Numbered from the stretch's first letter, positions 6,488 to 59,788 are shown. The stretch is 64,000 bases of DNA from Amoebophrya sp. A120 (GCA_905178155.1 CAJINV010000013.1:1264392-1328391); one strand, 5' to 3'. The notes: generated by a model not told the origin, from the letters alone. Numbers and translations: made by a program.

Positions 6488-9400
6488 CTAATCACCCAGC
6501 TCATCCTCGTCCTCTACGTCTTTCTTCTTCGAAGGTTTTCCCTCTTTGTTTCCCTGCTCGGACGACACCTGGTCGGAGAGCATGGACGCTAATTGCTCCT
6601 GCATCATGCGCATCATCTTCGCTTCCTCTTCGTTGCCGCCCTGGTTTGCACCTGGGTTTATTTTTTTTTCCGCAATTTTAGTTTTTGTTTTTCATTCACG
6701 ACAAGGAAAGGCAAAAATGATTCTCAGACTAGGCACCAGTACTAAAACCAGGGATTCATTTTCATTGGGCAAGATATGAAAATTACAGCCGCTACGACTT
6801 CCACCAGGTGCGGAGCCAAATGAGGCGAAAAGAACACAGAAGCAGAGCAACCAACGAATTATCTATCAAGCCCTACACTCTTGTACCTGCGTTGTTGTTT
6901 CCCATTTCCAAGATGTCGATTCCCCCGTTTTGGTCGAATTTTACCGTGAACCGCTGCACTTCGACGGTCTTCTTCTTCCCACTGGCGCCTTCTGTTGAGT
7001 CGGTTTTTCCCGAAGTAGTAGAACCGTGTGCTGTCTCATGATCTTCGGATGCTGAAGTTTGTTCCGTCGCACCACTCCCTGATGCTTTCTTTTTCTTTTC
7101 CGGCTTGAGCTTGTGCAATGTGATTTCATTGTCCGCGTTGTCCTCCTCCTCCTCCTCGGTCGAGGAGGCGCGTCGGGACGCGGCCGAATCTTTGCCGGCA
7201 CCCCCGCTTAGCTGATCACTCCCCCCGCCGAACAACTTCGACAATTGCTCCGCCAATTGATTCGCAAAATCGTCATTCAAAACGTCACCGCCGCCGCCAG
7301 TGTGCAATTTGAACTGGACCGTAGGAGGGGATGAAGTCTTTCCTTTTGTCTTGGTGTTCGAGTTCGCCCCCGATCCGCCGGTAAAAAAAGTGTCGCCGTC
7401 CACGTTCACAGCCCCGAACACCAAACGCGGCTGCTCTGCTCCGCCAGAAGTTGCACTGTCCTTTTTCATCTTGTTCTCTGAAGTTGTCGTGCCGCTGTGT
7501 TCACTTGAGGCACCTTGGTTTGCTTTCGACGTTGCCTTGTTGTTTTCGATGTCACCTAGCGGAACCTCCGCTAGCTGCTCGAAAAGAGACTTCGGCGAAA
7601 GGATTTCAGCCTCCAGTCGGCGCAGTTCGCGTTCGAGTTCGATTCTGGTGTGAACAGGCACGACCTCCGCGGGCGTTGCGGTGGGGGGTTGTTCGGTTTC
7701 GGTCTCTAAAGCGACGGTGCTGCCGGCTTCGTCTTCGGACTGCAGTGAAACTGTTTCACCAGCAGCGCTGCCTGGGGGTGACGCTGTTTGCGGTGTCGGC
7801 TCGTCGTGGACGCCATGCTCATCACTTCTTCCCGACGATATCTCCACTTCGGTTGTTGCGGTTTCAGTCTGGTCTGGTGTTGTCCTTTCGTCTTCCTCAG
7901 CAGCCGCGACTTCAACAGTGCTGCCCGTGTCTGTGGTCGTGGTTTCCGCGTCCGAATCTAAACTTTTGCCAACATATCAAATGTAAAGTGTCTGGGTCTG
8001 GAAGATTCATGCTGTTTTTGCATGACGCAGAAGGTGTGGCATGGAAGCTCTAGCATCACAGGTTTCGAGAAGCTTCCGCAATGCCGAACCCGCATGAGAA
8101 ATCCCCCATTTTGGTGACAGAAAGGGGGTAGCTTTTGCTACCTATGCATGAGAGATTTTTCTGTGTTCGAAAATGCGCATCACAAGTTCGGATCCTTCCA
8201 GACCCAGACATTTTTGCATTTGATACAACATCTTCGCCGCTAATTCCTTCCACCAGCTTGGCCCACGCGCTTTCCATCTCTGCTTTCGACTTCTCCTCTG
8301 CGGCTTTGCGCTCCTGCTCTTCTGCTTCTAAACTTGCCTGCCACAGCCGCAGCCTCTCCGCCGCCAAGCGTCTGTCCTCTTCCAGCCTCTTTTGCTCCTC
8401 CGCAGCGCCCACGATCAGGTCTTCGCGCTCCTGCCAAAAATCGTTAATTCTCAACCACTTGTCGAGCAGCTCGCTCGTCGACTTTTCTTTCGCACCACCC
8501 TCGTTGGTTTCTGCGGCACTGGCTGGCGCTGCCCTATCATCGTTCTTGTCGGCCGACAGCAATAGGTCGGCAAATCTGTTCGGGGTCGTCAAAATGGAGG
8601 GGTGCCGTGTATAGTCCAGCTCAGGGTCGACTGGCGGAATCGTAGTTGTTGATACAACTGGAGCAGCAGCTATTTCATCTTCAGCATCCGCTGCTGTTTG
8701 AGGAGGTACGGACGCATTTGCTATTTCTACATCTCCGCTTGTTCCTGCAGGTCGTCCACCAGGACCGGTATCTTGTCCCGCCCTCTCGTCCTGTCTACGT
8801 CCCTCTCCTGCGGCCGCATCAGGCTGGTCTGGCTGCGGGGTTCTACTGTGGTCCCCTCCAAACAAATCCGGGAGCTGCTGCTCCTGTGCAGTGGGATCAT
8901 CGGCTCTTCCTTCAGCCCCCGTTGTTTGTGGTGGTCTACTCGCTTGTCCTGCTGGTGGCGCACCACCTCTATCCTCTTCTGCAGCTGTCCGCGTGGTCGT
9001 GGTTTCGTCGTGTTCAGCCAAGGCGGCCAGGGCGGCGCGCAGCTGTATCCTGAGTAAAAACGTACCCACACCAGAGTTGTAATGCAGATTTGCAAAGACA
9101 GGAAGACTCGTAATGCGCATCCCCATGAGAGCCATTTCCAATTGTGTTTTGGAATTTGTGATGCTGTGAACAGGATGAGCAGATGAGTCTGTGATGCTGC
9201 TGCACTTGCTAACCTGCACTACACTGCAGAGCGCAACTTGTCATGCATGACTCACGAAACTCCTAGGTTTGTGTTGCAAAATCCCCATCCTGACTCTGGT
9301 GTGGGTACGTTTTTACTCAGGATAAACTGCTCTGTGTCCTCCTCATCTTCGCGAGATGTGGGAGGAGAGGGTGTAGTGGCTGTACTTTCTTGCTGCTCGC

Positions 9401-15486: not shown

Positions 15487-18400
15487 CTACAGCAGGCTAT
15501 TACCGGCCTGTACCTGACCAGAGACTGTCTCGTGCAAGTGCATGCTGCCGGCGGTGGCAGTGTCCAGATGGTCCTGAACACGGAATTGGTCGTCCCCCAA
15601 AAGGTCGTGCTGAATACCGGCCCCCGCGGTACTGTGGTAGTGATCGTACACTGCTTGTTGTTGGGCCGCTATTGCGGCGTCTTGCTGTTGCTGCCAACTG
15701 GACAAGGAAAACCCGGGAGCCGAACTGGTCGCCGCCGCGGTGGTGGGGCCTGCTTCTTGGAAGTAGTATTCGACAAAGCGGCTGCAGGACTGAAACAGCT
15801 CCTTCTTCCGCTTCTTCTCGAACTGGCGCAGCAAAAACTGACTGGATTGCGTCACTTCGTGGAAAAAGGTTGGCTTTTTGGCAGATATTGTACCAGAGAC
15901 TTGATGCTTTGTTGCGTTGTTACTGTCTGTGCTACTTCGATGATGAAGTTCTATCGGCTTCACCGAGTCGCCGAATTCGCTCATGTATTCGAGGTAGTCG
16001 GGGAAGAAGGGCAGCGGCATGACGAAGGGTTTGACCAGCTCCCAGACGGCTTCCATTTTCTCCTGCAACAGGGACATGGACGAGGAGGCAAGAACCGCCG
16101 CGTTTTTGCCGCCGTTTTCCTCGCGCGCGATCTGCTGTTTGACCACGTGTGCCGCCCCCATCTCCTGCAACACCAGGTCCACCGGGAAACCCTTGAAGCA
16201 CACCTCGGTCGGCCCAATCAGCGGGTTGCGCTGCTCCGCCGCCCACTGCGCGCCCCGCCCCTCCCAGCGACTGTGATGTTTATTATTTCCGTAGTGATGC
16301 TGCCCAGCATGGTATAAGTCATTGTCCCCGTCAACGTCGGGTTCCAGATCCTCGCACGGATCGTGCTTTTTGTTGTTGAACACCGACAGACTGGAGGTTT
16401 CGAACAGCTCGCCGACCACGTAGCGCACAAACATGGCGTCGTCCACACACTCGTCGTCCAGCCGCCGCTTCGCCTGAATGGCTTTCTTCTCCTCGCTGGA
16501 CGGCCCGCGCTCGTGCTGGTCCACGTCGTTGAAAAAGATGGGCAGGGACATCACGTACGAATGCACGATTTCCCGGATCGCCGCGAGCCGGTTGGCCAGC
16601 GCGAGCTGCTGATCCACCCGCTCCTGTCGCTTCCGGCTTTTCCGCGACCGCTTGCGCGCACTGGCGCCGCCACCGCTCGCCAGGGTGTCGGCCTCCTTTT
16701 CCAGCAGCTTCAAAACCGTCCACCCCCAGCTGTAGAGGTCGAAGGCAAAGTCCAATTCAAATACAAACCCATGGTCCACCGGGATCGGGAAGGGCTGGCC
16801 CTCCACCGTTACGCAGGGCCGCACGTAATATCGGTTCAGCCGGACCGGGTGCATGTACGACCAGGTACCCGCCCGGTGCAGCGGCCCGGTAAGAACCACG
16901 TCCTCCGGCTGCACGACGGTCAGGATCGAGTAATTTTTGATCTCCGGCTGCTGCCCTGAAGATCTCGCAGTGCTGCTCGTTCGACCACTATGAGATTGGT
17001 TGATGTCCTCGTCCGGAGGTCCCGCATCAACTTCTCCGATTTTCGTAGATGAAGATTCTCCTTTGTTGATGTCGAGGTACTCCGGCTTGGGCAGAAAGCG
17101 GAGCTCGCGGGCCAGTTCAAAGTGCAAATTGTCCTCCTCCAGCCAGCGGCTGCGGTAGTCCGTAGCCTTGTCCAGCGTGACGCCCATGCCCAGGTCGAGC
17201 AAGAGCACCTTCGACTTTTCGTTCGCTTTCGCGATCGTGTAGCCGATGTTTAAGGGTTTCAAATCGTGGTGATGCGTCCCGTATTCGTCGTGCAGCATCT
17301 CCAGGCACTGAAACAGCTCCCGTGCGGTTTCCACCACCGGGTTGCTCTGCGCGAAGGCGCCCTTGTCCTCGAAACTCACGTTCACCTTTTCCATGATCAG
17401 CGCGAAAGCGAACTTCACCGCCTTGGAGAATTTGTAGTCCTTTCCGGAGTTGCCGCGGATCATCACCTCCCGGGCGTACTCCCCCTGCTCCAGAAACAGC
17501 AACTTATACAGCTTCGGCACGCAGTGGCGGGCTTTTCCAAGCGACCGCTCCTCCTCCTCCTCCTTGCGGGTAAGGAACAATTGCAGCACCGCCTCGTCCA
17601 TCAGACGGCTGTCCTTGGGCGGCGAGATAAACTTGATCACCCGCTCCTCGCCCTGCGGAATATGCACTGCAAAGAAACTTTAGAACAACTCGTAAATGTG
17701 CAAATAAATCCACGGCAGATCATAATTCTATGCAGTTGTGCAGTTTGTTCTTTCGCTTTACCATTTCTGACATAGTAATTCTAATTTGCACACATACGAA
17801 ATCCAAGCCTTTTGCACACAGTCATAGCTGTGCGGTTCAATCAGTTCGTACACCGCACCGTAGCCCCCCTGTCCGAGACGTTTGCCCACCCGGTAGATTT
17901 GGTTCTCGCTGGCTGGTGCAGCGGCGGTAGTGCTTGCTGAAGGTTCCGGGGTGTTTTTTTCATCTCGATTTTTCTTCTTGCTTTCGACCACTTCGACACA
18001 CGTGTCCCCAGTCTTCGATGGCGTAGATGAAGCTGCTGTAGTTGTCCCCATCGTGTGGTGGAATCCCACGAAGTGTTCCGCGTTGTCAAAGCAATTGTAG
18101 TTCAAGCGAATCCGCGCCGGAAGGAAAAACTCCTGCTGCACGCTCTGCTCAGTGACGAGAAAAGCGGGCGACGGTTTTTTCTGATCCTCGAGTAGCGACT
18201 GGTCTTCTGCTATCTTTTGTTTCATTTTGGTATCTTCCTGATCGACCTGGACACCAGACGCGTAGTTCTCGCTTTTCAAAATCAATCTGCTCTCCCCGAA
18301 TTCCAGGATCCGCTGCAGTTTTTTGGCCAGGGTGCGGTAACTGGTCTCAAAAAACTCCGCGAATTCCTCCTCCTTTTCCTTGTGGTAGGAGCTGCGCAGC

Positions 18401-29753: not shown

Positions 29754-30140
29754 CTTGTGTCTCACCGCCTGCCACGACGCGGCTCTGAAAGAAACACCTT
29801 CTTTTGTCTGAAACGGTATGTGGTCGAAAGGAACTTCATAAAATGCAAAAGGCACTTTCTCACATCCCTCAATCACTTTGTTCCCTCTGAGTCGTCTGCA
29901 CGAACTTGGATCTGTCACAGGGTTCCGTCAGCTGGGGATCTGCAAAGAGGATTCTTCGTCCTGGCCTGTAAGATAAACACAGTCTCGCATTTGGAGAGAA
30001 ACGCAGAATTCGACCAGCCAGAGTGGCTGCAGAGACGAGGTTTGATATTCCAGCCTTACCTAGCCCGGTAACCGCATTTGCAGCATTTTTGTACTGGAAT
30101 AGTTGGAAGTGAAAGTGATGCGACATCAAACTTCTGTTAT

Positions 30141-31987
30141 TTACATCTTCGCCAACAGATCTGAAAAGTCAAACTCGTCTTCCAAACCCCGGAAGTCCTC
30201 TTGAAAATCTCGGCTGGCTCGCCACTTTGCCAGAAAATCCGCACGCTGGAGCACGTGACCGCCAAGGCGGTGTGAAAGGGGAGAAGTGAGGACGCGACCG
30301 GCTTGTACTGCTCTTTGTCAAAAATGCACACTTTAACTCTCGTGCCCTCGTACTCGTAGTTATGCAAGAACTCAAAATGCATTCTCCGCAAATAAACCAA
30401 CCAACACGCAAGAACAGTGTCGCGCCCTCACGGTCTCCACCTTCATACATCCGACTTGTATTTCATGGTCATGTCTCCCGCCTCCTCCTGCGTGTCTGCA
30501 GCTTCTCCCGCTTTCTTCGCCGTGGGCTTTTTCTTCTTCCGGGGCGGGTGGCCCAGATTCCAAAAATCGTACTGATTCCTTTCGAGCCACTTGCCCAGCA
30601 GCCACATCTGCAGTAGCCCGCAGTTCGGCTTCGATTTGTCACAGAAGCCCGTTAACGAGGTGTACACTTTTCCGAAACTGTAACCGCACTCCCCTGCGAT
30701 TAGCTTCAGCTTCTCCTGTTTTTTACTTGAGGCGGAACTGTTTGTCGTGTCGGTAGTAGAAGCGTGCGCTGGACCGCCTGCTCCGGAAGTAGAAGAACTA
30801 CTTGCGCCGGGCTGTGTTTCAGTGGAAATACCCCCTGTTATCTTACCGGGCGTTGCAACCGGATCATTCTCTTCTACCACCTCGTAGAGCTCGATAGAAT
30901 GTGGGACCAGCTTCATGTTTTTCTTACCGTTTGATCCTTCGCCACTCGGCGACGACTTCCCGCGCTGACGTCCTTTTTGTTCTCGCACATTTGTGCTAGA
31001 GCTGGCTTGGCCTGCTTTCGACGCATGGTTTGGCTCCTGCTGGGCTTGAAAGAAGGCGTTCATCTTCCCCCTGCCTTTGCTTGCCTCTGGTGGCAACAGA
31101 CCCGCCTGCCGCACCAAACTTGCATAGTCTTTGTTGTACCAGCAGGACTCGTGATCTTCTTTCTGTGCCTCTTCGTCTTTCCCCGTCGCATCATCCGCAG
31201 ATTTTTCTTTCTCGGCATTACCATTTTTCTTTTTCCCCGCCGACCAATACTCGCCGATTTTCCGGACGCACTCGTCCCAATTTCTCGTGTTGAACAAGCG
31301 GAATTTCCCGCGCTTCAAAAACCGCCGCGTTTTGCGGCCGATATGTAGGTTCTGAAAGTCCAACACGCAGTAGCTCTTCTGGATCTCGGGCAGCAAATAT
31401 TTCGAGTGGCGCACCGCGATGAACCCCTCGAAGGCCAGGCGGCGGTAGTACTGCGGGGTCCAGGTGGTGGTGATGTAGTAGTGGTGGTAGGTGTCTTCCA
31501 TCAGAATTTCGAAAATTTTCTCGTTCTCCAAATCGTCGGGCTCTAGACGCCGAATCGGCGCGGGCTCCTCGTCGCTGTCGTCTTCGTCGGGATCATTTTC
31601 TTCGTCTACGTCCATGTTCGCGGTGTTTTGTTGTACCTCCGCTGCTGGTTGTTCGTCATTCTGCGCTTTTGCAGGTGCGGCGGCGGGGGTTTGTTCTTTA
31701 TTTCCAGGTGAAGAAGTACTATGCGTCTGTTGTTCACTTTCTTTTCCGGCCTGGCTGCTGCTCTTCATATTGTCGTCGTGTTTCCCAACAGCAGGCGAAG
31801 TCGCCCCTGTTTGATGATTCTGCGGCGCTTGTGGTTCACCTTCGTTCCTTTGCTTCCGGGGCCCCGAAGAAGGACTGCTGCTGGTCGCTTGTCCCTCCGC
31901 TCGCGCCGCGGGGCGGTAGGACGAAGAGCTGCTGCTTGCGCCGGGAGTGTTTTGCACATTATCTTCTCGTGCCACTGGTGCAGACAT
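30141..31987 (-). CDS. Leu/Phe-tRNA-protein transferase-like (Aat/ATEL1-type) aminoacyl transferase
   Basis: Motifs LHIGRKTRR, HSIELY, LIAGECGYSFGKVYTSLTGF and FWNLGHP. The last exon LGGHVLQRADFLAKW joins to MKYKSD after a 182-nt removal. Confidence 0.8.
30271..30447. mobile_element. Introner, unique family, 177 bp, DR decayed
   Basis: About 28-bp TIR (sense TATGAAGGTGGAGACCGTGAGGGCGCGAC / GTCGCGTCCTCACTTCTCCCCTTTCACA); element+5 restores the frame. Confidence 0.85.
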
Positions 31988-32645: not shown

Positions 32646-33999
32646 CTACATTTGCGGACAACTCCCGGCTAAGGGGTGCTGACCGCCGTGCCGACCGGCG
32701 CCCTTGAGAAAGGGAATTTCCACGCCGCCCTTCCCGCCGAAGATGATGCACTCTTTCTCCAAGTCGAGAATGCACTTAAACCTTCGCATCTGGTCGATCC
32801 CCAGCATGAACAGCGGCTCCTTCATGTCTAGCACGACAAAGTCCAGGAAAAACTCCACCAGGTTGAAGGTCACCGCGACGTTTTCCAGCGTGCCCAAAAT
32901 CTTCGCGGTGCCCACGCCGGACGCCACGCCCTGGCGCATGGTGTTCAATTTTGAGTTCAGCTTGAGGCGGTCCACGAGGGGTTTGGAGATCACGGAGTTC
33001 TGCGCGCCGGTGTCGATCATCATCTCCACCATCACCTGATTGATCTCGCACGCCACGTACACCATCTCGTCGTTGGTTTCCTCCCGCTGAACTTGCTGCG
33101 CCTGCTGCATTAGCCCGGGTAGCGCGCTCGCGGGAATCAGGACGGGCTGGCCGCCCCCGGCCGGCTGGACCAAAACCATGTTGTCTCCGTGAGCGTTATT
33201 TCTTGCGCCTTTATTCCCCGGCGCGTGGTGTGGAAGGAAAAAGTTTGCTCTGCCGATCTTGTCATGCTCGGATATAAGCTCGTTTTTACCTTGCATCAAT
33301 AAGTTGCGGTCGTCCGCTGCTACTGGCACTGGAGATGAACTGCATACTGACGCATGACAAAATCACAGAACCATCTACTTTTCTTGCTATCATACATTCC
33401 CGCCCGTTTTGCCCATAGTCGGCTGGAAGTTCGCATGCCCGGGTGTAGCACCCTTCTGTTGCCCCTTACCTGCGGGTGCAAACGGGCTGAAACCCGGCCC
33501 GTGGTTGCTACCGCTTCCCGAACCCCCACCGAGAGGACCCATTGCGGGACTTGGGTTTATTATTGGTGGTCCGGACGCGCCCATTTCCCCGCTCAACGCC
33601 CACGCCAACTGCTCATCCTCGCCCTCCTGCGCGAGACGGGCGGCCAGCGCGGCATCCCGCTGCTCCTGCTCGCCCTGTATGGATGGCAAAAGTGCAAAGA
33701 ACGCGCCATCTGCGTGCTGTGCAGTGAAGAACGACCACGGGTGTGCGAAATTCATCATTGCGGGATTCGCATGTATGATATACCAGAACAGATAAACCGC
33801 CTATTAGCAAATGAGTTGTCCGGATCAAATTCACAAGACAACGCACACGTTGACGACGCGGTCGAAATATTTCGCAATGCATAGTACGAAGCTGCTGTTG
33901 CTGGGCGGTGGAGCTGCCCGCCGTAGCCGCACCACTACTTTCCGCCCGATTGGTGTTCGTCGAAGCCGGTCCGCCGACCCGGTTCCCGCGCCAGAACAT
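32646..33999 (-). CDS. DDI1-like retropepsin aspartyl protease with a UIM-like segment; two degenerate introner-like introns
   Basis: MVYVACEIN...MIDTGAQNSVIS...GVASGVGTAKILG...MLGIDQMRRFKCILDL matches the DDI1 RVP domain; DAALAARLAQE / DEQLAWALS is UIM-like. Confidence 0.85.
33223..33394. mobile_element. Degenerate introner-like intron; left boundary approximate
   Basis: Sense start G-TATGATAGCAAGAAAAGT; decayed IR with TTGTCATGC/GCATGACAA at both ends; flanking ORFs share a frame. Confidence 0.6.
33678..33883. mobile_element. Degenerate introner-like intron, 206 bp
   Basis: TATG...CATA ends, weak TIR, DR decayed; removing 211 nt joins MFWRGN...QQLR to EQEQRD in frame. Confidence 0.7.
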
Positions 34000-39790: not shown

Positions 39791-41367
39791 ATGTTCCCCA
39801 AAACGAAACCCTCCACCTCCAGCGCCCCCTCCAGCCAACAGCCCGAGCCGCGCGTTCTCCTGACCGGCGCCTATGGCTTTCTGGGGACGCACTGCGTGAA
39901 GAAGGCGATAGAAAGCGGGTTTCGCGTCCGGGGAACGGTGCGGAATTTCAGCTACGAGAAGCAGCTGCGGAAAGCACTGGGGATAGAACAAAACGACAAG
40001 AACGCGGACAAGTTAGAATTGATCAAACTCGACCTGGAGCAAAGCTCCCAGGAGGAATGGAGCGAGGCCATGAAAGGTTGCGACTACTGCCTTCACCTAG
40101 CGACGCCGGTGGTGACCACGTACGTTTCAAATCCAGACACGGTGTTGAAACCCGCGGTGCAGGGGACGGAGAAAGTCCTGCGGGCCTGCGCGAAAGCAAG
40201 GGTAGAAGAGATGAGATTTTGATACAGAAGCTATAACGCAACTAGAACTAGTTTTGCTCTACTTACTTAAACGGTAATTGCAGCATGACTTCATCTTTAT
40301 CAAAAATTGATCCAAGAGGCAACGTTTTTGTTGAAACGCATTTGCAATTCATCTTCAGGTCCGCCGCGTGATTTTCTGCAGCTCTACGTCGGCCATCAAC
40401 GCGGGCCACAGTTGGAACAAAACGCACTTCACAACGACTATCCAAAATGAAAATCTTTTGTCAATTATGATGGCAGCGCCCGTGTTTTGTAGAAGCAGCA
40501 TATCTTAGTGATTATGCAGAAACGACTAAGAGTATGACGTAGGTGCCGATCGCGGCTATTTTTCTGATACATGTCTGTTGCTCCACCCGGTTCTTGACAA
40601 CAAATTTTCATTCCATACCAAAAGACTGGAACGCCGAGAGCCCCAACGGGAACGAGGACAAGGTTTTTCTGTACGAAAAATCGAAGTCCCTGGCGGAGAA
40701 ACAGGCCTTCAAAGTCGCCGCCGAGCTCGACTTGGATCTCATTTCCATCCTTCCGGGCTCCATCTGGGGCCCGAACATCCTGCCCCGCCTCAGCCCCTGC
40801 GGGGAGGCCATCCAAAGGATTTGCAACCGGGAGGTGCCCATGATGCCGGTGCTGAGCTTCAACTGCGTGGACGTCCGCGACGTGGCAGATTTGATGATCC
40901 AGGGCTTGACCGTGAAGCTCAGTGACACGAGCAGTCCGAAAACCAAAAAGCAGCAACTCAACCGCCGGTTTCTCGCCGTGGCACCGGAGTCCATGGACAT
41001 GAAGGTGATTGCGAACATTTGCAAGGACGAACTCGGCCCCTATGGGTGGCGCCCGCTGACCACGTTTGGGCCGTACGCGATTTTCTGGCTGTCATCGTTC
41101 TTCCTCGAGCAGGCGGCGTTTATCCTGCCCAACATCGAAAGGGCGTACACGTATGACGTGGAAAACACGCTGGAAACGTTTTCGGGCTCGGGTTTCAAAA
41201 AGTTCCGGAGCGTTCGGCAAGCGGTCGCGGACATGGTGCACTCGATGCACGACATGAAGATGCTGGACCCGAGTCGGAAATCCATGCTCGTGGCCGCGGT
41301 GAAAATGGTTTGTGGGGACAACGAGTGCACAAGGTTTGTGTGTCCGAGTAGAGCGAATGGAGGATAG
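39791..41367 (+). CDS. Extended SDR / NAD-dependent epimerase-dehydratase (aldehyde reductase / DFR-like)
   Basis: VLLTGAYGFLG, VRGTVR, HLATP, CSSTSAI, YEKSK (YxxxK) and VDVRDVA motifs; GT-AG intron 40202-40358 plus introner 40439-40617. Confidence 0.9.
40439..40617. mobile_element. Introner, 179 bp, DR decayed (ACGAC/CCAAA)
   Basis: TIR TATCCAAAATGAAAATCTTTTGTCAA / TTGACAACAAATTTTCATTCCATA; removing 184 nt restores the SDR frame. Confidence 0.85.
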
Positions 41368-42098: not shown

Positions 42099-45000
42099 AT
42101 GAGCGATAATCAAAGTCGAGCGATCTCGCCACCGCTAGTGCCGCGTTTCTACGCCCGGTGCCCCGAGCAGTCGGATCGAAAAGAGGTACCTACGACGAAC
42201 TGTTGAAGCTTATGCGTTTTTCGTCATGCAGAATTCAGACAACTTCAACTCACAATGCATGTACGCATCACAAGTACTTCTTTACTTCAGGCCGCGCACT
42301 TCGATATCGGCAGCCCAGACGGGACACCCATGAACGACGACCTGCTGATGCAAAGTATGGCTTACCAGAATGGAACTTCACATATGCTGCGTTTGACATG
42401 CTGTTTTGCTATCGCCACAAGAAAATGAGAAGGCACGACAACAGATCACTCTTTGACTCAAAGGCGGAAGTTCAGACTGTCGAGCGTTTCAGTTTCTAAG
42501 AAAGGAAAAGCTCCCGGGGGCATGATGAATTTCGCCAGGCCCTGAGAGATAGCAAAGCGGCTTGGAAAAATTGCGGGGGCAGTTTTCATTCCCATAAAGG
42601 ACCGTACGGCGACATGTTGTTGGAGCAAAAGGAACCAGAAGGCACTAAGTATTGAGCGTTATCTGTGATTCAAAATACGTAGTAGCACGTAGCTACGTAA
42701 GAGCAAGCAGAATACGAATATCATTTTTCACACGGAATGCAGATGGCTCAATGTACTTTCGCTGCCTTCGTGCGTAGAATCAAACCAAACATGAAATATT
42801 CACAGGGCCACTGCGCAGCATGCCGCTTCGCTGCCACCAGCAACTGCCGGCACTTCCTCTTCAAGTTCGACCTTTCTCAACCGGATTCCAAGCCCGCTGA
42901 AAAAACGACGGTCGGTCGTGGCAGAGGAATCCACGACGCATACCTCATCGCCAGTGAAGGCAGCAAGCGGAACGACGAGCAGGAGCGCAAATCACGTGCA
43001 GAGCGGGAACGTATCTGCACAAGGAGCCACCGCCGTTTTCACCGTCTACCCCCCGAGATTTCCAACCGCCGAAGAAGAAGAGAACTACCTGCGGGACGAG
43101 TTACTGGACGGGTTTTCGGCGAAAGACGAGGAAGACGGTTCTCATGCGGTAAGAGAAGAAGGCGACTACGACGGTCAGGACTCGGAGGGCATCTTTGTCG
43201 ACGAGGAACTGTTGGTGTTGCCGGTGCACCACGGGCATGTGGACGAGAATTCGCGTGGGTCAACATCAAAGCCACGAGTGCAGCCCAGTCTCCTGCCCGC
43301 TGCCGCGGTTGAGGACCGCGAAATTTCCGAGGATCCAGCGATTATCTACTTCGACGGAGAACTCGGAAATAATAGCGCGGAATTCCAAACGCAAACTGCC
43401 ATGGTCGACCTCATCGGACAGTCTTCTGTTGGCGTATGGAATAGAACGTAGGGTGAGTCAGCTGAACATCGTTTTGTTATGCGGAGGCTGCGTAGTTTCC
43501 TGCCCCTCCGGTCATTGATCTGTTTCAGAATTAGCAGGCTTTCCTATTAGCAGGCTTTCTTTCATCACCCTCGGAATTATCGTTAGGAATTTTTGAATTT
43601 AGCATGTCCCTCTCAACACCGCATGAAAAATGTCAGCTTGACTCAGATTTTCCAAAGGATATCCTGCGGGTTTGGAGCTGTCACGGATCACTGAGGAGCA
43701 GGCTACGAATCGGAGTAGTGATGATTTGTTTTTGATGTTGTTTGAACTCAGTCTCACCCATTAGCAGTATTTTTGTCATGCGCCAATATTAGAATACGAT
43801 CTCCTTTCCTCTACCACAACAGGCGACCTGCTTCCGGAAGACGGATCACAAACCGGCGAAGAATCCGTGTCCATCCCGGAAGTCGGCGCTGAGGTGCTGC
43901 CGCAGATGTTTCGGGAACTGGTAGAGCAGGATCGACAGGAGGACTTGAGCAAAATCGTGTCGCATGTTATGTCACTCTGCGGAGAGGGAGAGGAGGAAAA
44001 GTTAAAGTATTTTAGCATTATCTGTTTCATTCACGGACGTTGCTTCTGATAGAATAGTATGACGCGTCTTTATTTGCATGTCAGAAGGGGTGAAGAAAAA
44101 CATTCAAGTCAGACAAAAATTTAAATTATCATCGCAGCTCTGCTGCCGCAAGTACCAGCGACGAGCCAGAAAGCATGTGCCTCACCCCGACGCTACCAAT
44201 AGCTGCACCTCCAGAAAAAGAAGCGCCTCCGTTCGACAGTTCTGCGGCAACTAAGAGCATTCCCGACGACATCGGTTCGTCCTCTTACGCCGTCGAGGGC
44301 CAGCATCAGCAGTTGCTCGAAACGAGCGAAAACAACACGTCCTTCAACAGCGCAACTACTCCCGCAGCTCTTGTTCCAACTTCCCTTCCGAACCTGAAGC
44401 CTTGCGAGTCGCTGGAGGATCTCACCACGGGCCCGAGCTCGGTGCGGCGGCAGTGCTCCCGCGTGGATTCGTTGACGCAGATTTTGGAGAAACACATGTA
44501 CAAGGACGAAATCGTGCAGCAAAACTGTTTCCGGGAGGATCTCCACCGCTTCAAATTCGACCTGAGCGTGGACCTGACAAATGTGGAGCGGGAGGCGGAG
44601 AGTGTGTTGCTTAACAAGTCGGTGGAGGAACAAAACGGGGACGACAAACTGGGCGAAGCGTTGGAACGGCTGGCGAAGAGGAGACAGGAGATGCAGTAGA
44701 ATTTCATCTGTTCGATAGGTTTTCAGTATGTGTGCATGTTGCTTGTTCGACACGTTTCAAATCAATGTGACTGCATGCTGTTGCTGACTTCGGCTACAAG
44801 GAAATGCAAATATGCAAAAATTATGAAATTTCAATGATCCCCCAGGTCCCGTCGCGAGCCTGCAGCCGCCCGTTTCGCCGATCTGAAGCAGTCCACTGTG
44901 GTGCACACCACCACTGCCTCCCAGCCGCCCTACCGGCAAGGGCACGACCCAACGGTCTATCAAGCAGAGCAATCTGTGGTCTCGATGCCGCGGCGGCCGG

Positions 45001-48000
45001 CTTTTGCCTCCCAGCCGAGGAACTTGTTCGGCGCGAAGCGGAGCACGAGTAGCGGTGGACAACAAGGGATGAATTATTCGCAGAACACGAGCCGCCGCTG
45101 CGCCTCCACGAACACGATCCGGGGCTTTGCGCGCGCGGGGGGACAGGTGCTGCTGGATGAATCGACTGAGCTAGAAAAGAAGATCGCTAGCCTAACGGCA
45201 ACGCAGCGTCGCACCCACTCCGCGCGGTGCCGCAGTCGGCTGGAACAGCGCGGGCCGGGCGGAAACGGGATTGGTACTTTTGGAACTGCAGGGGGCTCCT
45301 TTAAAGCCCCTGACAGAAGTAGTGCTCCACCATCCTCTACCACGAGTTTCGGTGGTGTTGCGAGCAGAAGCGGCACCACTCGCGCTAGCAGTGCTTTTAC
45401 GCAGAAGGAGGCAGGCTATGGGAGGAAATTTCCCACATCCATTGGAACAGCAAGCCGTCAGCTCCGGGGGCTCTCGCTGGAAGCGAAGCAGAACGCGGAA
45501 AATATGAAGGTACTACTGGGTGTATAACGGTGTGTACCATGCGCATGCATGAATGCAATGGTTTCTTCAGCACATATCCCAAAAAGCCGAGGTCGGTAAA
45601 CATAATTGTCGTGGTGATTTTTCAGCCCTTCACAAAAAACAAAACCAGTTCTCCTCCGGCGGCGCGTTGTTCAACCCGCAGCCGCGGATTAACCAAAAAC
45701 CCGCGACGGCGTACTCCAACCCGAAAAAGTCGCACGAGTCTTTCATCACGTCCCTGCGACAGCCGCAGAAGTTTAAGAAAAAGTCCAGTTACATGTATCA
45801 AATGTAAAAGTGTCTGGGTCTGGAAGGATGCGAACTTGTGATGCGCATTTCACAACACAGACAAATCTCTCATGCATAGGCAAGAAGCTAAAGTCACGGG
45901 AGGAAATGAGAAGTCGGCGACTCAACGAAAATCAAAACAAGCGGAAGCGAAAAGCACAAAGCAAAAGACAGAAGCAAGGGAGTTGGCCGAGCCAGTGCGA
46001 GCGGAAGTAGACCCCCTAACTTCAAAAGCGCCGCACTCATTAGAATTTTCAAAGGGAGGGCATAAAAGATACTCAAAGGAAGCCGGGGCATCGCAAGACC
46101 AAAGAGCAAGTAGCGCTGCAGGACAAAGAGGGAGAGCGAGCAACAGTGAAAACGTGAGGAGAAGAAAAAGCGCCGAAGGAGAAAGAACAGAGTCCAAAAA
46201 GAGAGAAGCAGAAGGAGAAGATACAACGCAAAGGAAAAGGCAGAAAAGCAAACAGCACGGAGATAATAAACAAGAAGCAGCCGAAGAGGTGGAGACGCTG
46301 GCGCAAACGATGCAGCGGATTATCAGCGAACCCTTGCAGATGGGCGCAGGAGGGAGAGCGGGAGGACGACTACAGGCGACGCAGGATCTCTACGGTTAAA
46401 CAGCTGAAAAGTCTCTAAGTCAGCCCGGGAGTCGCGTCTGAATGTTCTACAAGTTTGAGAAATGCACTTCGTTGACCGTTTGAAAACACATCACTGCAAG
46501 ACTTTGCCGGCTGCTGAAAAGTACAGCAGTCCAGTGCAGTAGAGTTCTAAGTCTGAAATAGAAACAGGAGAGCGCTAAAAAAAAAAAGAAAAAGAAGCCT
46601 GCGAGAAGATTCGCGCGACTTGGTGCGTTCGTCCCAAAGCCTCGCCATTGCTCTAAGAGCCTTCAAATTCTTCCCAGCTAGTGGATCCATTAAGCGGCCG
46701 ACGAAATTGATACAACCAAGATCAGCACGGGAGCACTCAGGCAGATCACGAGGCAGGGCGAGGAACTTACAGGATCCCAAAAATATACTAAGCAGGTAAA
46801 GAAGATCGAGCCCATCCAGATAGATAAGCCCGGAGACGATCCAGACCAAAAAAAAAAAAAAACAAAATAACTACGCAGGTAACGAGGCCAGGCGTAGCGC
46901 AGAGGGTTCGACTTGAATGCGCGAAGATTCTGAACCGCGAGCCGGGAGCAGCTAGCTAGACGGGAAAGGGGAGAGTCAAAGTGGGGAAGAGGCAGGAGAG
47001 GAGGCGACTAATGTTGAGGAAGGAATGAGGCGAGTTGAATGGCGGCGAGTTAAATTGAAATGGAGGCGAGTTAAAGGTGAAGAGGGGGGCGAATTTAATT
47101 GAAGAGGAAGAAAAGAGGAAGGAGGGAGATGAAGCATAAAACAGGAGGCCATCAGCTCGTAGATATAAGCTCCGCCATTTGTATAAGTAAGACATTTTCT
47201 TTTATAGTAAATCAAGAACGGCGCGAGCACCTTATAAACCCCCCCAGCCGTCCCATATTTGCATGTGCGGGGAGTCTAAGTAACATGGCTCGCCCGAGTC
47301 ATTGACGAACCGGGAAGATGGGAGGTGGGGCTTACAGTCTTCAGACAGGCCAGCCGCCGTGAGGGACTACCGCCTCTGTTATTGAGGATAGCGTGTGTCC
47401 TCCTCGACTGAGTTGCGTGCGCGGCCCATCCGTGTTCCGCGTAAACCTCTACAGGAGAGTGTGCGCCGCGTCGAAAGGCTCCCTTCCGTACGGAGCGCCC
47501 CGAACCCTTTTTAGCGCACCTTTATGATGGCCTTACTGTTGAAAGGATGGAGGGAGTTACATCAGTTTTTAGAACCCAGTCTGTTTATGCTAGCAAAGGG
47601 CTAGTGCGCTGTGGACCCCCAGGATCAGGTAGACGAGGTCCCAGACCGAAGTGGTAGGCGCTTAGGGTGAACTATGTATGTAGCGCTTAGGGCCCTTCCG
47701 TACGGCCAATTTGTATGCCCGTAACGGGGTTCGCCTAAGTCGGTAATTTATATGCAAGGCGTTGGGTTACCCGGTCGGCAGAGCCGATCCACAACGAACG
47801 AACGATAGGCAGCAAAAGGTGCCCACTTCCTGTCCCTAAAATGGGGGATTTGTCATGCGGATTAAGCAATGCGGAAGCTTCTCGAAATCTGTCATGCTAG
47901 GGCTTCCATGACGGACATTTTGTGTCATGCAAAAACAGCATGACAAGAATCTGCATTCTTCCAGACCCAGACATTTTTACATTTGATAACATGTCCACTT

Positions 48001-51000: not shown

Positions 51001-52800
51001 CACAGCTGAATAGTACCAATAGTTTTGCGCACCAGCAGACGCAGCAAGCGTTTGCGCCGCAGCCGCGCGTGGGTGGATTTCTAGCTGGCTCGGTACAGTT
51101 TGGCACAGCAGGAAACTACGTTGCCTCGTCTAACGTTGCGTTGCAGCCCCCGACGACCAACACCCGTCTCCACACCACCCGCAGTCCGCAGCAGCAGCGC
51201 GCGTTTTGCGAACGGTTACACGATGGAGGAGACCGCCGCAGCCCTCCGCGCATGGTCAGTCAGAACGTGACGCAGCCGATTTACAGCCAAGTTGTGGTTG
51301 GAAACAATTCAAGCGGGGGACCACAAGTGCCAGTAGCGCAAACGAGAGGGGGAAAGGTGTTGAGCCCGCCGCCTTTGCAACGAGGGAGCTCCTGCAAAGT
51401 CAGCAATCTTCATCAGCAGCCGGCAGCAATTATCCCGTCAACGACGGTGAAAACTTCGAATCCGCAGAAGATGCTAGCCTGCCTGCAGAAAGAGATCAGC
51501 AGCGGTGACGTAGCTGTTGTGTCTTCAGCCACGACTTCTAGTACTGGGCAGGCGACCTATCCGACATCGAAGCTAAATGCTCCGCCGCCACCACCGCAAC
51601 ACAGCGCGACGCTGATGTCGCACACGTTGATTATCCTGAGTGAAAATGTCCCCACCCCAGGCCCAGGGTTGTCATGCAAATCTGCATACCAAAAAAGTTT
51701 CTCATGCGGAGCCCCATGAGAGCCATCTTCTAATCCTGTTTTGGATTTTATGATGCTAGAATCAGCATGATATGCTACATCTGTGATGTTAGGAACTAGC
51801 TAAACAGGATTACACTACGAGGATAAACTTGTCATGCGAAACAACCAGAGGTGGCCGATTTGTGTAGCGGATTTCCCATCTTGACTCTGGTGTGGGGACA
51901 TTTTTACTCAGGATATTGATCCCCGGCGCGAGCCCGGGGACAATTAGCACCTGTTCCACTTCCGCGGGCACCACCCCCCTGACGCTGCACGCCCCGGCCC
52001 TGCTGGTCCCGAGTAGCAGTGCTGGTTGCCAACAACAGTCCGGGTCCTCTAGTAGGACAAGTGGAGGAGCCTCACAACAACACGCCGGTGTGCCGGCTTT
52101 GATCGTGACGAATAAACCCCCGGCGCACAACAACTCCACACCGCCCCCGTCTGCGCCGGTGTACTACAGGAGTAGTGTGATGGGGAACAACCACAATTGT
52201 TCTAGCTTCTCCTCTTCAGCAAGCTTAATCGGTGGAGCAAATCATGCCATCATCCGAGGTGGAGCTGCCAATGTGATCAGCAAGAGCGAGATGGGAAAAA
52301 TTGTTGGCAGTGGAACTACACCAGGTCCTACAAATACGTCTGTGGACGACCACGGAGCAAATGCAAATGCAAATCCGGCGGGGAAAATCAATAACAAGAA
52401 TTTACTGGAGCAGCAACAGGAGCAGTTGCAGTCGATTCTGAATTCCAGTGTGGTGTCCACGCCCGAACAGGAGATCGTCGGCGCGGAGGAGTACTACAAG
52501 CTGCAAAACAAAGGCAACTATCGCAGCCACAAGCAGTGGACGCCGGACCACTGGGCGAGTAACTCGTGCACGACGACTTCGCACAGCACGGAGTTTGGCA
52601 GCAGCAACTCGTGCCACCTGGCGGAGGAATTGAGTCGCGAGGCCGACGTGCAGGATTTGCTGGCGGAGGAGGAGGAATTGCTCACCACGATGGGCGTCAA
52701 GTACAGTCCCAGCACGAGTTTCGAAAATTTGCTACTCCGCAAAAAATTAGGCATCCACTACGCGGATCAGCACGGAATTCTCAGCACGGCGGAGTGCTGA
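42099..52800 (+). CDS. Very large Ser/Thr/Gln-rich low-complexity hypothetical protein, multi-exon; 5' exons uncertain
   Basis: ORFs at 42918, 43867, 44175, 44898, 45553, 47922 and 51892 can be linked by GT-AG introns and by introners 45796-47988 and 51632-51915 (both frame-checked). Confidence 0.6.
43435..43820. mobile_element. Probable degenerate introner-like intron; right end uncertain
   Basis: Starts G-TATGG; internal IR GGGTGAG..AACATC / GATGTT..CTCACCC; possible DR TGGCG/AGGCG giving an in-frame 391-nt removal. Confidence 0.45.
45796..47988. mobile_element. Introner family A, DR ACATG, split by a nested 1.9-kb insertion
   Basis: Both TIRs intact; the halves align to the reverse complement of 7975-8225; removing 2198 nt joins KKSSYM to STSLIL in frame. 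Confidence 0.92.
45883..47804 (+). mobile_element. 1,922-bp nested insertion with 7-bp TSD ATAGGCA and (AACG)3 tail; probable non-autonomous retroposon
   Basis: ATAGGCA at 45876-45882 and 47805-47811, where uninterrupted family A copies have one corresponding site; no TIR or LTR; no RT or transposase ORF. Confidence 0.75.
51632..51915. mobile_element. Introner/MITE family B, 284 bp, DR TTGAT
   Basis: TIR TATCCTGAGTGAAAATGTCCCCAC / GTGGGGACATTTTTACTCAGGATA; removing 289 nt restores the frame (SHTLIPGAS). Confidence 0.95.
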
Positions 52801-54436: not shown

Positions 54437-55970
54437 ATGCGGTTTCCCGGCAGCGCAACAAGCAACTCATCCTCCTCGTTCACCTCCTTCTACGTGGACT
54501 GCGTGCAGTCGATGCAATGCGGCGACACGAAGTCCCCGAACCCACTCACCACACTGAAGAACTCACTCCTCACACCCACCTCCTCCTGCCCCTGCAAGAA
54601 GGCGGTCGAGGAGTTTGGCGACCGGAAACTGGTGAGCTCCAACAGCCCGGTCTTTTCCACGGGGGAGCAGAAGTGCGACCCTTTGTCCTACTACTACGAC
54701 GTGCAACGGGACACCTGGTACAAGTGTTGCGGCCGGCCGCTGGATATGCCTTGCAAATATGTCTGGGTTTGGAAGTGTGCAAACGTATCATGCTAAATCT
54801 GAATCTTGCAAATATCTGTGTTGCGTGACCCGCAGAAGACACCCACTTCTTGCCACCTTCAAGGCGAATTTCTCATGCGGAATAGACATTAAGAAGGAGA
54901 AGCTGCAGCTGCAAAATTTGTGATGCGTCCGGATGCATTCTGCACCATCTCAGTGCTGGTCCACGAGATGCATGACAAACTTTGCTTTCTTCCAGGCCCA
55001 GACATATTTGCACTTGATACTGGACCCAGGGAAGGAAAAACTCCCGCTGATCGGCGACGCCTTCACCGAGATGATTATTACAGTGAAAAGTGCCCCCCCC
55101 ACCCCTGAAATTGCAAAAATTTGTGATGCGAAGTTTCCAAATGAGAACTTTGTGTCATGCATGAAAGGAGTATGAATCTTTCTGATGCAGAGTCTAGGCG
55201 TGTATCGCGTCGCTTGCATGACAAGCGCCGCTCTTGCTGGGGTCTTTTGCAATACAAATTTTCGCTGTTCGCGATTGGTAGCCTGTGATGCTGATAGATG
55301 CAAGAGGGCGAGTGTTTCATTTGGAAAGGTTTGCAATACAAATGCTCCCAAGTTCAGGGGTGGGGGCATCTTTCATCATAATAATGATCGACAAACCCTC
55401 ACTGCTTTTCCCCACCGGCGTGAAATCTTTTTTGAAAAAAGTAAAGTCCGCGGTGGTGGACAACGCCACGGCGCTGTTCGGCGCGGGCGGCTTTATGGGA
55501 ACGCAGGGAAAAAAGCAGCAGTACTGTGTGGAAATGAAGCGGTCAAAAGGACCGGACGTGTTGGAGTCGAACAGTAATATTGAGAAAAAAAGCTAGCAGG
55601 ACATATTTGTCTATGTAAAAAGATATGCTGACGCATGAGCAAGAAAAAACGATGCTTTGGACCCGCCGGTGACATAATTTTTTGCCTACTTCTTCTTTTT
55701 GCATTTAGGAATATGCCCTACTAATAGGTTTTTTCCCATGGGATAGCCACTCCGTTGATGGACGCCAACGACGTGCGCAATGGCAACGCGTTCGAAGTGC
55801 CGCGGTACAACAACCAGCTGATCTGCATGACGCCGAAGTTTAGCAAGCTGCTGCACCAGGAGCGGGGCGACTGCATGTGTTGGAACAGTCGGGAGGAGTG
55901 CATACGAATAGGAAAATACGGCAAGCGAACGCCGGGGATGGGGCATAGATACAATGTCTTTTTTGTATGA
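54437..55970 (+). CDS. Cys-rich hypothetical protein with two introners; last junction (~55560-55727) unresolved
   Basis: ...KCCGRPLD|PGKEKLPLIGDAFTEMI|DKPSLL... joins in frame after removing both elements +5. Confidence 0.6.
54745..55019. mobile_element. Introner/MITE family A-related, 275 bp, DR CTGGA
   Basis: TIR TATGCCTTGCAAATATGTCTGGGTTTGGAAG / CTTCCAGGCCCAGACATATTTGCACTTGATA; removing 280 nt restores the frame. Confidence 0.93.
55076..55383. mobile_element. Introner/MITE family C, 308 bp, DR ATGAT
   Basis: Reverse complement of 25529-25834; removing 313 nt restores the frame. Confidence 0.95.
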
Positions 55971-57005: not shown

Positions 57006-58215
57006 ATGGGTAACCAACCAGCATCCGAAGTTGGGTCCGCAGCTTCCTCCGCCCGCTCCAGCAAGCGGTTTCCCGTGATCACGCTTGGTTCGACCCTGGA
57101 GTTCCGCGCAAACCAGGGCAAGGAGGACGACATGCTGCAGTTTTTGGTGATGGCCCGGGACGCCGTCGCGCAGACCGAGAAGGAGGGCACGCAGAACTGG
57201 TACGGCGTGCGGTACTTCCCCATAGCCGATCTGGGGCAGAAGCCGCAGCCGGACCGGTTCGGCATCGTCGATTTCTTCGTGGACGAGGCCGCCCAGGGCG
57301 CGCACTTCTCGGGCGAGGTCCCGAACGCGGTGGCGGCCAACGACCAGACGGAGGACCCCATCGTGCAGGGGGGACTGGACGCCATCGTGGCCAGCCACCG
57401 GTCCTGGCGGCTGCTGACCAACCCGCCGAAGCTGACGGAGGAAAAACGCATGAAGCACGCCAAGTTCCTGTCCTTCATCCCCATCCGGGCGGGCAGCGAG
57501 GAGCAGGTGGAAGCCCTCAAGGAGCTGCTGTTCGGTGGGTTCCTGCTGGTCTCGGAAAACGAGAAGAAGACCTCCTTCTGGGCGGCTTGCCAGAACGAAA
57601 ACGACCCCTTGGAGTTGTATCCAAGCCGAAAATAAATCCGTCCTTGAGCTGTTGAATTATACTGAGACATCAGTCAATGACATAGGACCTCCGGCGCAGA
57701 TTTGTTCTGCAAACGATATCGCGAGATATTCTCGCAAAGTTACTCTTTAAGCATGCTGATGCACACAACTGAACTGCTGCTCCAAAAGCGCGCCTCCTAC
57801 TGAATAAAAGGGTGGACCACACAACTGAGCAAGTGCTCTCGTCGTGACACCATTAAGTATAACAACAGCTCAAGGCTGCATTTTTTTGGGTCACAAGTTT
57901 GCTATCATCGACACTTTCGACTCAATCGGGGGTGTGTATGCGCACTTTGTGGAGCCCGCTTTGGTTCCTTCGGCGGTCCAAGCGGCACTGGTTGACAACC
58001 CGGATTTGATTGAGGGCGGCTGGGAAATCGGGGTGGTCGCCAACATCCGCGTCTTTCAGATCGTCGCATCGTACGCAAATGTTGCTTTGTCTCGCACCTC
58101 GATGGCTTTTGATCGTTCTGATAGATCCATACCAGTACCAAAGGAAGTGGATTCTTTGATAGGTCTTTGCCACGCCCCCCACTGGAACTGCCTTTGTATG
58201 ACACAGCGAAAATAA
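57006..58215 (+). CDS. Tandem ABM-like (dimeric alpha+beta barrel) protein with possible N-myristoylation (MGNQPAS)
   Basis: Two repeats: GTQNWYG...FGIVDFFVDEAAQGAHFSG and KTSFWAA...FAIIDTFDSIGGVYAHF, matching the ABM pattern; the second repeat is split by an introner. Confidence 0.7.
57618..57895. mobile_element. Introner, unique family, 278 bp, DR AGTTG/AGTTT
   Basis: IR core CCTTGAGCTGTTG / CAACAGCTCAAGG; TATC...CACA ends; removing 283 nt gives DPLEFAIID. Confidence 0.88.
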
Positions 58216-59788
58216 ATTCATTGCATATCAATGCATTCAGATTCACTTGCGTTCTGCTCTATTACGCGATCGCTGTATCAACATGTTTCGACGGTGGGCC
58301 TCACAGAAATCGCAAGAAAGAGAAACCGATCAAGAGACAAACTACCGAGAGAGCATTTACCGATCCATACTTTGAAAACGGACTACAATGCGGGGCCAAG
58401 TGCGACGAAAACGGCAAAAAGAGACTGCGTGATGTGCGGGTGAAGGCATGGCGATGAACGAATCAATTATAGTGCTCTATTCTTTCCGATTCTTTTCTTG
58501 TGAAGATATTTAGGACTGTCGCCAGACTCACAGTCGCAGTTGCTTGCGCTGTTCTTTTTTTATTAAAAAACATGCGTTTAGGTTTTCTAGGGTACTATCG
58601 CCTTTCATTACTTACTTGTTTTCCGCGGTTTGGGTAGAAGGACCCGGAGGTGGAAAAAAGCGCGCGGAATTGGCTGGACTTTTTTGCAGCTCCGTTTCTT
58701 GAATAGTCAAGTCCTCACATGCCGAATTTTGTTCAGAAACGGAAGAGTGTAGGGAGCCGTGCACGCCAACACTTCATGCGATAAGTGATTATATTTTGCT
58801 CCCCATTCGTCCGCACCAGAGGTCTTTGCGTAGCAAGTGCCGGCCATTATTTTGTACTGCTTTGTGCTTCAGACTCGAGGCGGAAGCAAAAAGAAAAAAC
58901 CGATACAGCCTGCGTTGCTCGGGTTGTTATTGTGTACCTTGCAATAATACTGTCGACGAGATTTCAGAGGATAAGTAACTCCGATGCAGTAAAAGTGTCC
59001 GGTCTTTCTGCGGGAACGCAGAGACAGATCCCTGTGGAAAAGGTGTTACAATTTTTGTGTGCTATATGCTCCTTCCTTGGTAAGGACTACAACTCCGTTT
59101 TTTGATGACAGAAGAATTCTGAAGAACGACGAGGTCAAAAAGAATGGAAGTGACTCGATCTGTCGATCTTCTTGCTGGTTCTCTTCACTGGAGAGAGCTA
59201 CAGCAGGTCTGATCATTCTTCTGTCGGAAAAGCGCGAACAAAACTCGATGATGAAAATGATTCTTGACTCCTGGAAATGCAGCTCTTTTATCACTCCGAT
59301 AGTCATCAAGGAGTAGTCGAACAAAGATCCTCCTTTGGGACTTGTGAGGAGATCAAGTCCGATTGCCCACTTCGCTTTGCGCTGTGTCTGTGCTGGAGGC
59401 AATTCATCGGTACCGGAGTCCCGTGCACCCGGCGAGCATTCGTAGTTTTCACTGGAAAAACAACTGTCTCTGGCACTGCTGCTAGCTATCAACAGAGTGC
59501 GCTATTAATTTGCGACCTCCCGAAGGCTGTTGCCACCGAAGGAAGTAAGTAAAAGTATAGAATTGATTGTCGTAGTACAAAGCGCCGCAAACGTGAAACA
59601 ACACCTGCATCTTTCACGTCATTCTACAACAAAACTAAATGATAACTGTAAGCTTTTACTATGGTTGTTATTCCCGACGGAAGTAGAAATACAAGGTGAA
59701 GGACTTACTCTTCTTCTGGCTTTAAAAGTAAACATAAGGTTATTTCAAGAGAGTTTTCATCATTTTAAAAAGAACGACCAATCCAACC

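Follow-up and report, generated by a model that had tools for sequence, protein, structure and literature searches.

The stretch analysed here, referred to as the window, comprises 64,000 nt of DNA of the marine parasite Amoebophrya sp. A120, and all coordinates are counted from its first base. Three of its exons are 100% identical to proteins P0001, P0023 and P0025, all of which are named Amoebophrya sp. A120. The gene for P0001 is located on the minus strand. Its coding exon 1 (30449..31987) is 100% identical to P0001, coding exon 2 (30141..30266) supplies the last 41 codons and the stop, and with it P0001 is reconstructed exactly. The product resembles eukaryotic Leu/Phe-tRNA-protein transferases and has long low-complexity insertions; homologues carry PF03588, and a Pfam search with P0001 itself gave no match. 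The two exons are separated by a non-canonical intron (30267..30448, minus strand), which consists of a G, an element extending from TAT to ACA (30447-30271) and four further bases. It starts with GTAT and ends with ACA-CCGC, the terminal dinucleotides being GT..GC.

Many elements bounded by TAT and ATA occur in the window. They are 130-320 nt long and have complementary arms and a 5-nt direct repeat, which is perfect at 12 elements and has decayed at older ones, including that at 30271. A first-pass annotation of this DNA had considered the repeats at 17661, 30271, 33678 and 40439 to be mismatched; this is correct for the latter three, but at 17661 four of the five bases still match. The inverted repeats (TAT, seven variable bases, a run of As) are degenerate in older copies. 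Repeated families are seen as pairs within the window, where the element at 30271 has no listed relative. The elements show the hallmarks of MITEs (TIRs, target-site duplication, no coding capacity, either orientation), and their removal from RNA is seen in contigs of runs X1 and X2. The inverted repeats match the pattern published for the introners of A120 (Farhat et al. 2021, PMC7789003), which start with TAT followed by seven variable bases and then As, have direct repeats of 3-5 nt, form repeated families and are spliced at non-canonical ends. The TAT…ATA elements of the window are these published introners: the organism is the same and so are the elements. That paper reports about 29,850 repeated introns for A120 and more than 60% non-canonical introns without a clear signature, and leaves the splicing mechanism open; introner borders are called variable, and the legend to Fig. 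S23 puts the repeats 1-5 nt from the splice sites.

A terminal-repeat profile was built from 38 arms of 19 elements (one arm being 1 nt off). Scans for single arms performed no better than chance (23 matches versus 13-29 in shuffled sequences), and the profile yielded 109 raw pairs, compared with 18-37 in shuffled sequences. As several introns proven by RNA were missed or mis-ended in the profile scan, older elements were taken from RNA and protein junctions instead. The set used here has 24 elements and is not identical to the 19 of the first-pass annotation.

Splice junctions in RNA and protein

Contigs of runs X1 and X2 were placed on positions 27001-47000, and 15 of the 16 joints are listed. 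The contigs show the major splice form only. Both runs represent one sample, and their RNA nature is guessed, as no run is on record as RNA. Ten of the 15 listed joints can be read as GT-AG. The remaining five cannot, and all five skip exactly the element plus 5 nt, even though the flanking 5-mers match at only 1-3 of the five bases, so that removal does not depend on an intact direct repeat. In the following, registers are written as the number of bases cut before plus the number cut after the element.

Two of the five joints are unambiguous, with zero microhomology, and each is derived from one contig. One is the intron C-TAT...ATA-CAGG at 33674..33884 on the minus strand (one X1 contig), which interrupts a gene for a Ddi1-like aspartyl protease (PF09668); the other is T-TAC...ATA-AAGG at 42362..42600 on the plus strand (one X2 contig). 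Their elements at 33678 and 42363 are compatible with register 1+4 exclusively. The other three joints occur in both X1 and X2. For intron G-TAT...ACA-CCAC at 33225..33395 (minus strand; element at 33229), a 1-nt ambiguity leaves 1+4 or 0+5, as for G-TAT...ATA-TCCT at 43434..43665 (plus strand; element at 43435), while C-TAT...ATA-CCAA at 40438..40621 in an epimerase gene (plus strand; PF01370; element at 40439) is compatible with 1+4 or 2+3. Register 1+4 is the sole one common to all five joints and had been predicted beforehand; the product of the compatible fractions over six registers gives a chance of 0.001 for sharing it. Three of the five sites had been absent from the first-pass annotation. 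For two others it had named the junction: at 33678 the RNA skips 33674-33884 without ambiguity, and at 40439 it skips 40437-40620, with a 1-nt ambiguity that includes 1+4. Its claims of a fixed cut and of independence from the direct repeat are thus borne out by these joints.

At the element at 30271, the RNA contig pieces of both X1 and X2 end at 30449, the predicted last base of the exon, and bin depths fit zero coverage over 30336-30448 (6.55 and 8.64, expected and seen). Of the registers, only 1+4 and 2+3 give the annotated protein P0001 (YKSDLGG), in agreement with the constraint that had been drawn earlier from YKSD-LG, and 2+3 would end the RNA piece at 30450. RNA boundary and protein together define the intron as 30267-30448 in register 1+4. 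Here the 3′ side is fixed by the protein and the 5′ side by the ends of the RNA pieces, the joint itself being outside the listed ones. Four homologues read YKADLGG across this junction. The register tracks the sense strand of the gene, on the minus strand at 33674 and 30267 and on the plus strand at 42362, which fits RNA processing and not DNA excision.

Of the six junctions in the three annotated proteins, all are compatible with 1+4 and none allows a GT-AG placement. As the RNA of X1 and X2 may also underlie the annotation, we do not treat these junctions as independent evidence. Two of them, at the young elements 54744..55023 and 55075..55387 (both plus strand, P0025), are uninformative, since their repeats are perfect and 1+4 is one of 8 placements. 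The intron G-TAA...ATA-GCCA (55574..55749, plus strand) reproduces P0025 only with a cut 4 nt after ATA and is compatible with 1+4 only after re-reading of its left end as the TAA at 55575, which we count as an after-the-fact fit. The TAT at 55578, which was picked by the profile, was rejected as left end, as in register 1+4 it does not give P0025. For G-TAT...ACA-AGTT (57617..57899, plus strand), P0023 and its paralogue P0024 both read E-F-AIID; this reading had been noted before at 57618, and it allows 5 placements, excluding only 0+5. The intron G-TAC...ATA-CTTT (58071..58373, plus strand), supported by P0023 in register 1+4 or 0+5, was absent from the first-pass annotation.

One element-derived intron has 2198 nt (45795..47992, plus strand) and contains a 2193-nt element with a perfect 5-nt repeat, which hides the register, so that 1+4 is assumed. 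In X1 and X2, the loose RNA end at 45796 continues with sequence past 47993, and among the offsets tried (0, 3, 4, 5 and 6) only removal of the element plus 5 nt opens the frame. The element (45796-47988) is a member of the 7975/25220 family with a 1.92-kb insertion (45883-47804), which has a 7-nt flanking repeat and three terminal AACG units, like a retroposed insert. Its longest ORF (45842-46396), the only one scanned, has no Pfam match. Two further raw RNA runs do not cover the stretch: X10 has 0 reads, and X8 has 77 reads, which match only the terminal repeat 45796-45826 and then run into another locus. This repeat family is present in the RNA of run X8.

Register 1+4 is also assumed for the young element at 51631..51919 (plus strand), recognized by its perfect repeat and arms; after removal of the elements, 2350 of 2351 codons are open over 42000-52800. 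On the minus strand, introns are predicted at 9042..9325 (element at 9046) from the arms and a repeat in which one base differs, and at 17657..17797 (element at 17661), where the repeat has 4/5 bases; both frames are open after removal of the element plus 5 nt. At 9046 all registers yield the same peptide, and a 2+3 cut would end in CAG. The candidate older element at 23292-23519 (minus strand) has a strongly mismatched repeat, and there the registers give different peptides.

Introner-derived introns are thus cut 1 nt upstream and 4 nt downstream of the element, even beside a normal AG. From a small sample of nine informative sites, all in one window, we consider it very probable that 1+4 holds throughout the genome as the major rule.

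AG use and conserved terminal letters

At 33674 and at 42362, an AG is separated by 1 nt from the cut downstream of it, and both are unused in the RNA contigs; the same applies to an in-frame AG 3 nt after the cut at 40438. At 55574, an in-frame AG 3 nt before the cut would complete a perfect GT-AG intron, which is not what the annotated P0025 shows. These four sites confirm the proposed independence from AG. At 57617, where an AG lies 2 nt before the assumed cut, the protein allows either. At the tested sites AG is ignored, not avoided. The statement that none of the introns finishes in AG holds numerically (0 of 24), but with a chance expectation of about 1.5 (P(0)=0.22) it does not demonstrate avoidance; avoidance was rejected also because the published A120 classes include N-T...AG. 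Indeed, CT-AG, AT-AG and TT-AG are among the commonest non-canonical classes in Table S4 of PMC7789003.

The nine older introns that are supported by RNA or protein differ from canonical U2-type introns at both ends. A 5′ GT is found in 6/9, the other three starting with CT or TT (two of these unambiguously), and a terminal AG is found in 0/9. Among the 24 elements, the +1 base is G in 13, A in 4, T in 4 and C in 3. An earlier tally of 8 GT, 4 AT, 4 CT and 3 TT among 19 could not be reproduced, the two sets not being identical. A drift of older sites to GT was considered and is not shown by the data (6/9 older versus 7/15 others).

In all nine older introns, +2 is T, +3 is A, -7 is A, -6 is a pyrimidine (C in 3/9) and -5 is A, while there is free variation at +1 and in the last four bases. 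In six of these introns, the register had to be selected from 2-5 allowed placements; the other three show the motif without such a choice. As judged from this conservation, the invariant signal is N-T-A…A-Y-A-N4 and not TAT…ATA. Of the N-U-A-U start given by the first-pass annotation, N-T-A is retained in 9/9, but the fourth letter is T in only 6 (C in 2, A in 1). Likewise, the TAT...ATA definition of the element fails in 3/9 older introns, including that at 30271, which end in ACA. The notion of a donor-like 5′ end stands, as all 10 GT-AG introns start with GTA and share +2 and +3 with the elements.

Three GT-AG introns resemble old elements. That at 42649-42805 starts with GTAT and has ATA at -10 to -8; it could be an old element which uses an AG 3 nt past the rule, though it is without the A-run and T-run of the family. 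The GT-AG introns 27571-27690 and 43715-43822 contain ACA at -7 to -5, which makes them compatible with both rules. A T-run near the 3′ end is kept in 8/9 older introns, and the mirror A-run at the 5′ end in 5/9; with so few cases (n=9), the T-run might serve as a pyrimidine tract.

Copies of one family are found in either orientation with respect to the transcript, at 9046 versus 23850 and 51632 (gene strands were taken from ORFs, and splicing of the three copies is deduced from frames). As copies in both orientations appear to be removed, and the element with the 1.9-kb insertion is removed as well, the signals are expected to lie in the terminal repeats.

Removal mechanism and rival explanations

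On balance it seems probable, if moderately so, that A120 introners are excised in the fixed 1+4 register by the ordinary U2-type spliceosome, which would recognize N-U-A as a relaxed donor and place the 3′ cut by its distance from A(-7). Spliceosomal removal is suggested by the shared donor letters, the hybrid GT/non-AG ends, the nearly complete spliceosome of A120 and a precedent in Fritillaria. For A120, 83 of 89 spliceosomal proteins and U2, U4, U5 and U6 are reported, U1 not having been found, and all nine predominant non-canonical classes start with N-T (PMC7789003, Table S4). Rfam gave no snRNA or other match in 26001-64000. A TIR element TAT...ATA would insert and duplicate 5 bp, a known step that is evident from the sequences. 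The transcript would then lose the element plus 5 nt, as observed here, which would leave a scarless exon at a perfect repeat and, at older sites, a chimera of four upstream and one downstream repeat bases. The signals would be terminal letters of the TIR, namely U+2, A+3, A-7, Y-6 and A-5, their function being deduced from conservation, and the free positions +1 and -4 to -1 would come from the random target site. As both TIRs would carry these letters, an element would be spliceable in either orientation and with any interior, and nearly any exonic insertion would become an intron. Branching would occur at the predicted A-7, followed by a ruler-like second step without docking of an AG. A hairpin probably helps young elements and would not set the cut.

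The hairpin could have a larger role, however. In an alternative that we rate as rather unlikely, the register is equally fixed but the TIR hairpin joins the ends, and spliceosomal cleavage follows 4 nt beyond the base of the stem; the first-pass annotation had also measured the 3′ cut from there. For young elements, a long stem in register is predicted (summed pairing 13-19), older introns keep excess in-register complementarity (a mean of 9.2 of 16 positions, against 6.7 for the GT-AG introns), and the pair +2T/-5A is never broken in 9/9, which fits a pairing role. The excess could, however, be explained by descent alone. The TAT/ATA triple is intact in only 3/9 older introns and a pair is broken in 6/9. 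For these nine introns, the predicted stem-base pairing probability does not exceed 0.37, and the best predicted end-to-end helix is in register in only 2/9, versus 5/5 young elements folded, so that by prediction the terminal stem is strong in young and weak in older elements. In addition, A-7 is invariant though its partner +4 varies, A+3 is invariant though -6 varies, and A-5 is invariant as well. With the stem base broken in most older introns and folding probabilities low, a hairpin ruler is not supported, although energy models ignore proteins and the folding argument is not final.

We consider it improbable that a separate machinery, either an endonuclease with a ligase or a Euglena-like system, reads the letters at the TIR ends and excises a linear or circular RNA. 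The spliceosome normally needs G+1 and a terminal AG, both of which are dispensable in these introns. It would also fit a second machinery that U1 was not found in A120 (PMC7789003) and that the MITE-like introns of Euglena are suggested to use other factors and to leave as circles (PMC12501133, PMC11282704). Against it, U+2 and A+3 are common to all 10 GT-AG introns of the same genes, 6/9 older introns combine a 5′ GT with a non-AG 3′ end, and the GT-AG introns 27571 and 43715 fit A-C-A-N4; hybrids are thus common, unlike in Euglena. Comparable introns of Fritillaria are removed by the U2 spliceosome (bioRxiv 2025.08.15.670264). Highly improbable, in our view, is that the joints do not represent splicing at all and are due to slippage of reverse transcriptase across hairpins, to element-free alleles or to excision at the DNA level. 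A hairpin with a direct repeat is the usual substrate for template switching, and the RNA nature of X1 and X2 is guessed. But two joints lack microhomology and the 2350-codon frame depends on the removals, which makes an artefact unlikely. Moreover, the same contigs skip 10 GT-AG introns, YKADLGG is retained across the 30271 junction in the four homologues, the asymmetric cut goes with the sense strand, and two other runs contain all sampled words of 28000-36000, introns included.

For the U2-type spliceosome with a ruler starting at A(-7), this adenosine is possibly the branch point. An A with a pyrimidine next to it on the 3′ side is in keeping with a branch site. In PMC2483917, the distance from branch motif to AG is given as 2 nt for Yarrowia and 4 nt for Trichomonas and Giardia, which by our own count places the branch A at -6 and -8, respectively; a branch at -7 would lie within the range of these branch-anchored introns. 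Counting against it, T-R-A-Y at -9 to -6 is found in 0/9 older introns versus 9/15 younger or other elements. The idea that A-Y at -7 is also a rule in GT-AG introns was rejected, since the enrichment is not significant (4/10, P=0.11); for -7 or -8 it is 8/10, with P=0.008 for fixed positions and 0.19 when any position is allowed.

More tentatively, the A120 spliceosome might need neither terminal dinucleotide: it would read U-A at +2/+3, branch at the TIR adenosine and cut exactly 7 nt on. The TIR would then be a complete, orientation-independent splice cassette, with one rule for tens of thousands of introns, and the TTA-type elements of strain A25 may have converged on N-T-A plus a branch-like YTAA. 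These A25 elements are unrelated, start with TTA and two purines, and the commonest A25 introns start with TT (PMC7789003). From this published description, they would also read N-T-A, and the mirrored right end YYTAA is near the branch consensus, which we note as a lead.

Relation to known introns

While PMC7789003 describes variable borders, we find one register, a five-letter signal and blindness to AG, all derived from sites at which the junction cannot slide. A fixed register or five-letter signal for A120 is not stated in the text of that paper, but its logo figures may show part of it, and the register may in part be anticipated by its mention of four repeat bases located upstream of the 5′ end. 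The accessible text of PMC12130899, PMC12005148, PMC12787238, PMC11282704, PMC12501133 and PMC12621601 holds no such statement for A120 either. While the elements are known, a fixed, AG-blind splice rule thus appears not to be in print in the non-subscription literature searched.

The nonconventional introns of Euglena (PMC12501133; PMC11282704) had been proposed as an analogy, which holds in part. They share the MITE-like origin and inverted repeats at fixed offsets, slidable junctions that were resolved via non-slidable introns, and the status of a majority class in the genome. But the Euglena signature N3CDG...CH'GN5-6|R is absent here, C-D-G at +4 to +6 being found in 0/9; GT or AG hybrids are rare in Euglena (PMC12501133) and common here; and inverted repeats are reported to be needed in Euglena, whereas here stem-base pairs are broken in 6/9. 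In Fritillaria borealis (bioRxiv 2025.08.15.670264; PMC11282704), TIR transposons have likewise generated non-GT/AG introns at genome scale, and these introners are removed by the U2-type spliceosome (bioRxiv 2025.08.15.670264). They mostly have specific dinucleotides (AG-AC, AG-AT) and U1 is conserved, while here the first and the last four bases are free. Trichomonas, Giardia and Yarrowia (PMC2483917) resemble A120 in that the 3′ cut lies at a fixed short distance from an adenosine-containing motif, but they keep a strong WCTRAY and a terminal AG; A120 introners have neither, and their A-7 branch is only predicted. The introners of Micromonas and Aureococcus (PMC11282704, PMC7789003) are also non-autonomous DNA transposons whose target duplication allows a scarless intron, but they recruit from the target site a canonical GT or AG, neither of which is needed by A120 elements.

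With the fixed register, the splice code has likely been found for a class of introns whose published borders are variable and unknown. Given one register and a five-letter signal, the seemingly chaotic non-canonical introns of A120 follow a rule, which would allow re-annotation of the A120 genome and one-base predictions for lariat mapping. This rule would also represent a natural example in which the 3′ splice site is chosen exactly without AG or a fixed last base, which bears on how the second step of the spliceosome picks its target, and it explains why a transposon pays little for insertion at almost any place in coding DNA.

Two other features of the window should be mentioned. On the minus strand, 3408-5660 codes for a DEAH-box helicase (Helicase_C, DEAD, HA2), a family that includes the spliceosomal proofreading helicases; a search of representative proteins gave no identical protein, the best relative being 64% identical, and no junction was gained. 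Finally, 26196-26797 consists of a degenerate 17-nt tandem array with about 34 copies and a 74-nt higher-order repeat.
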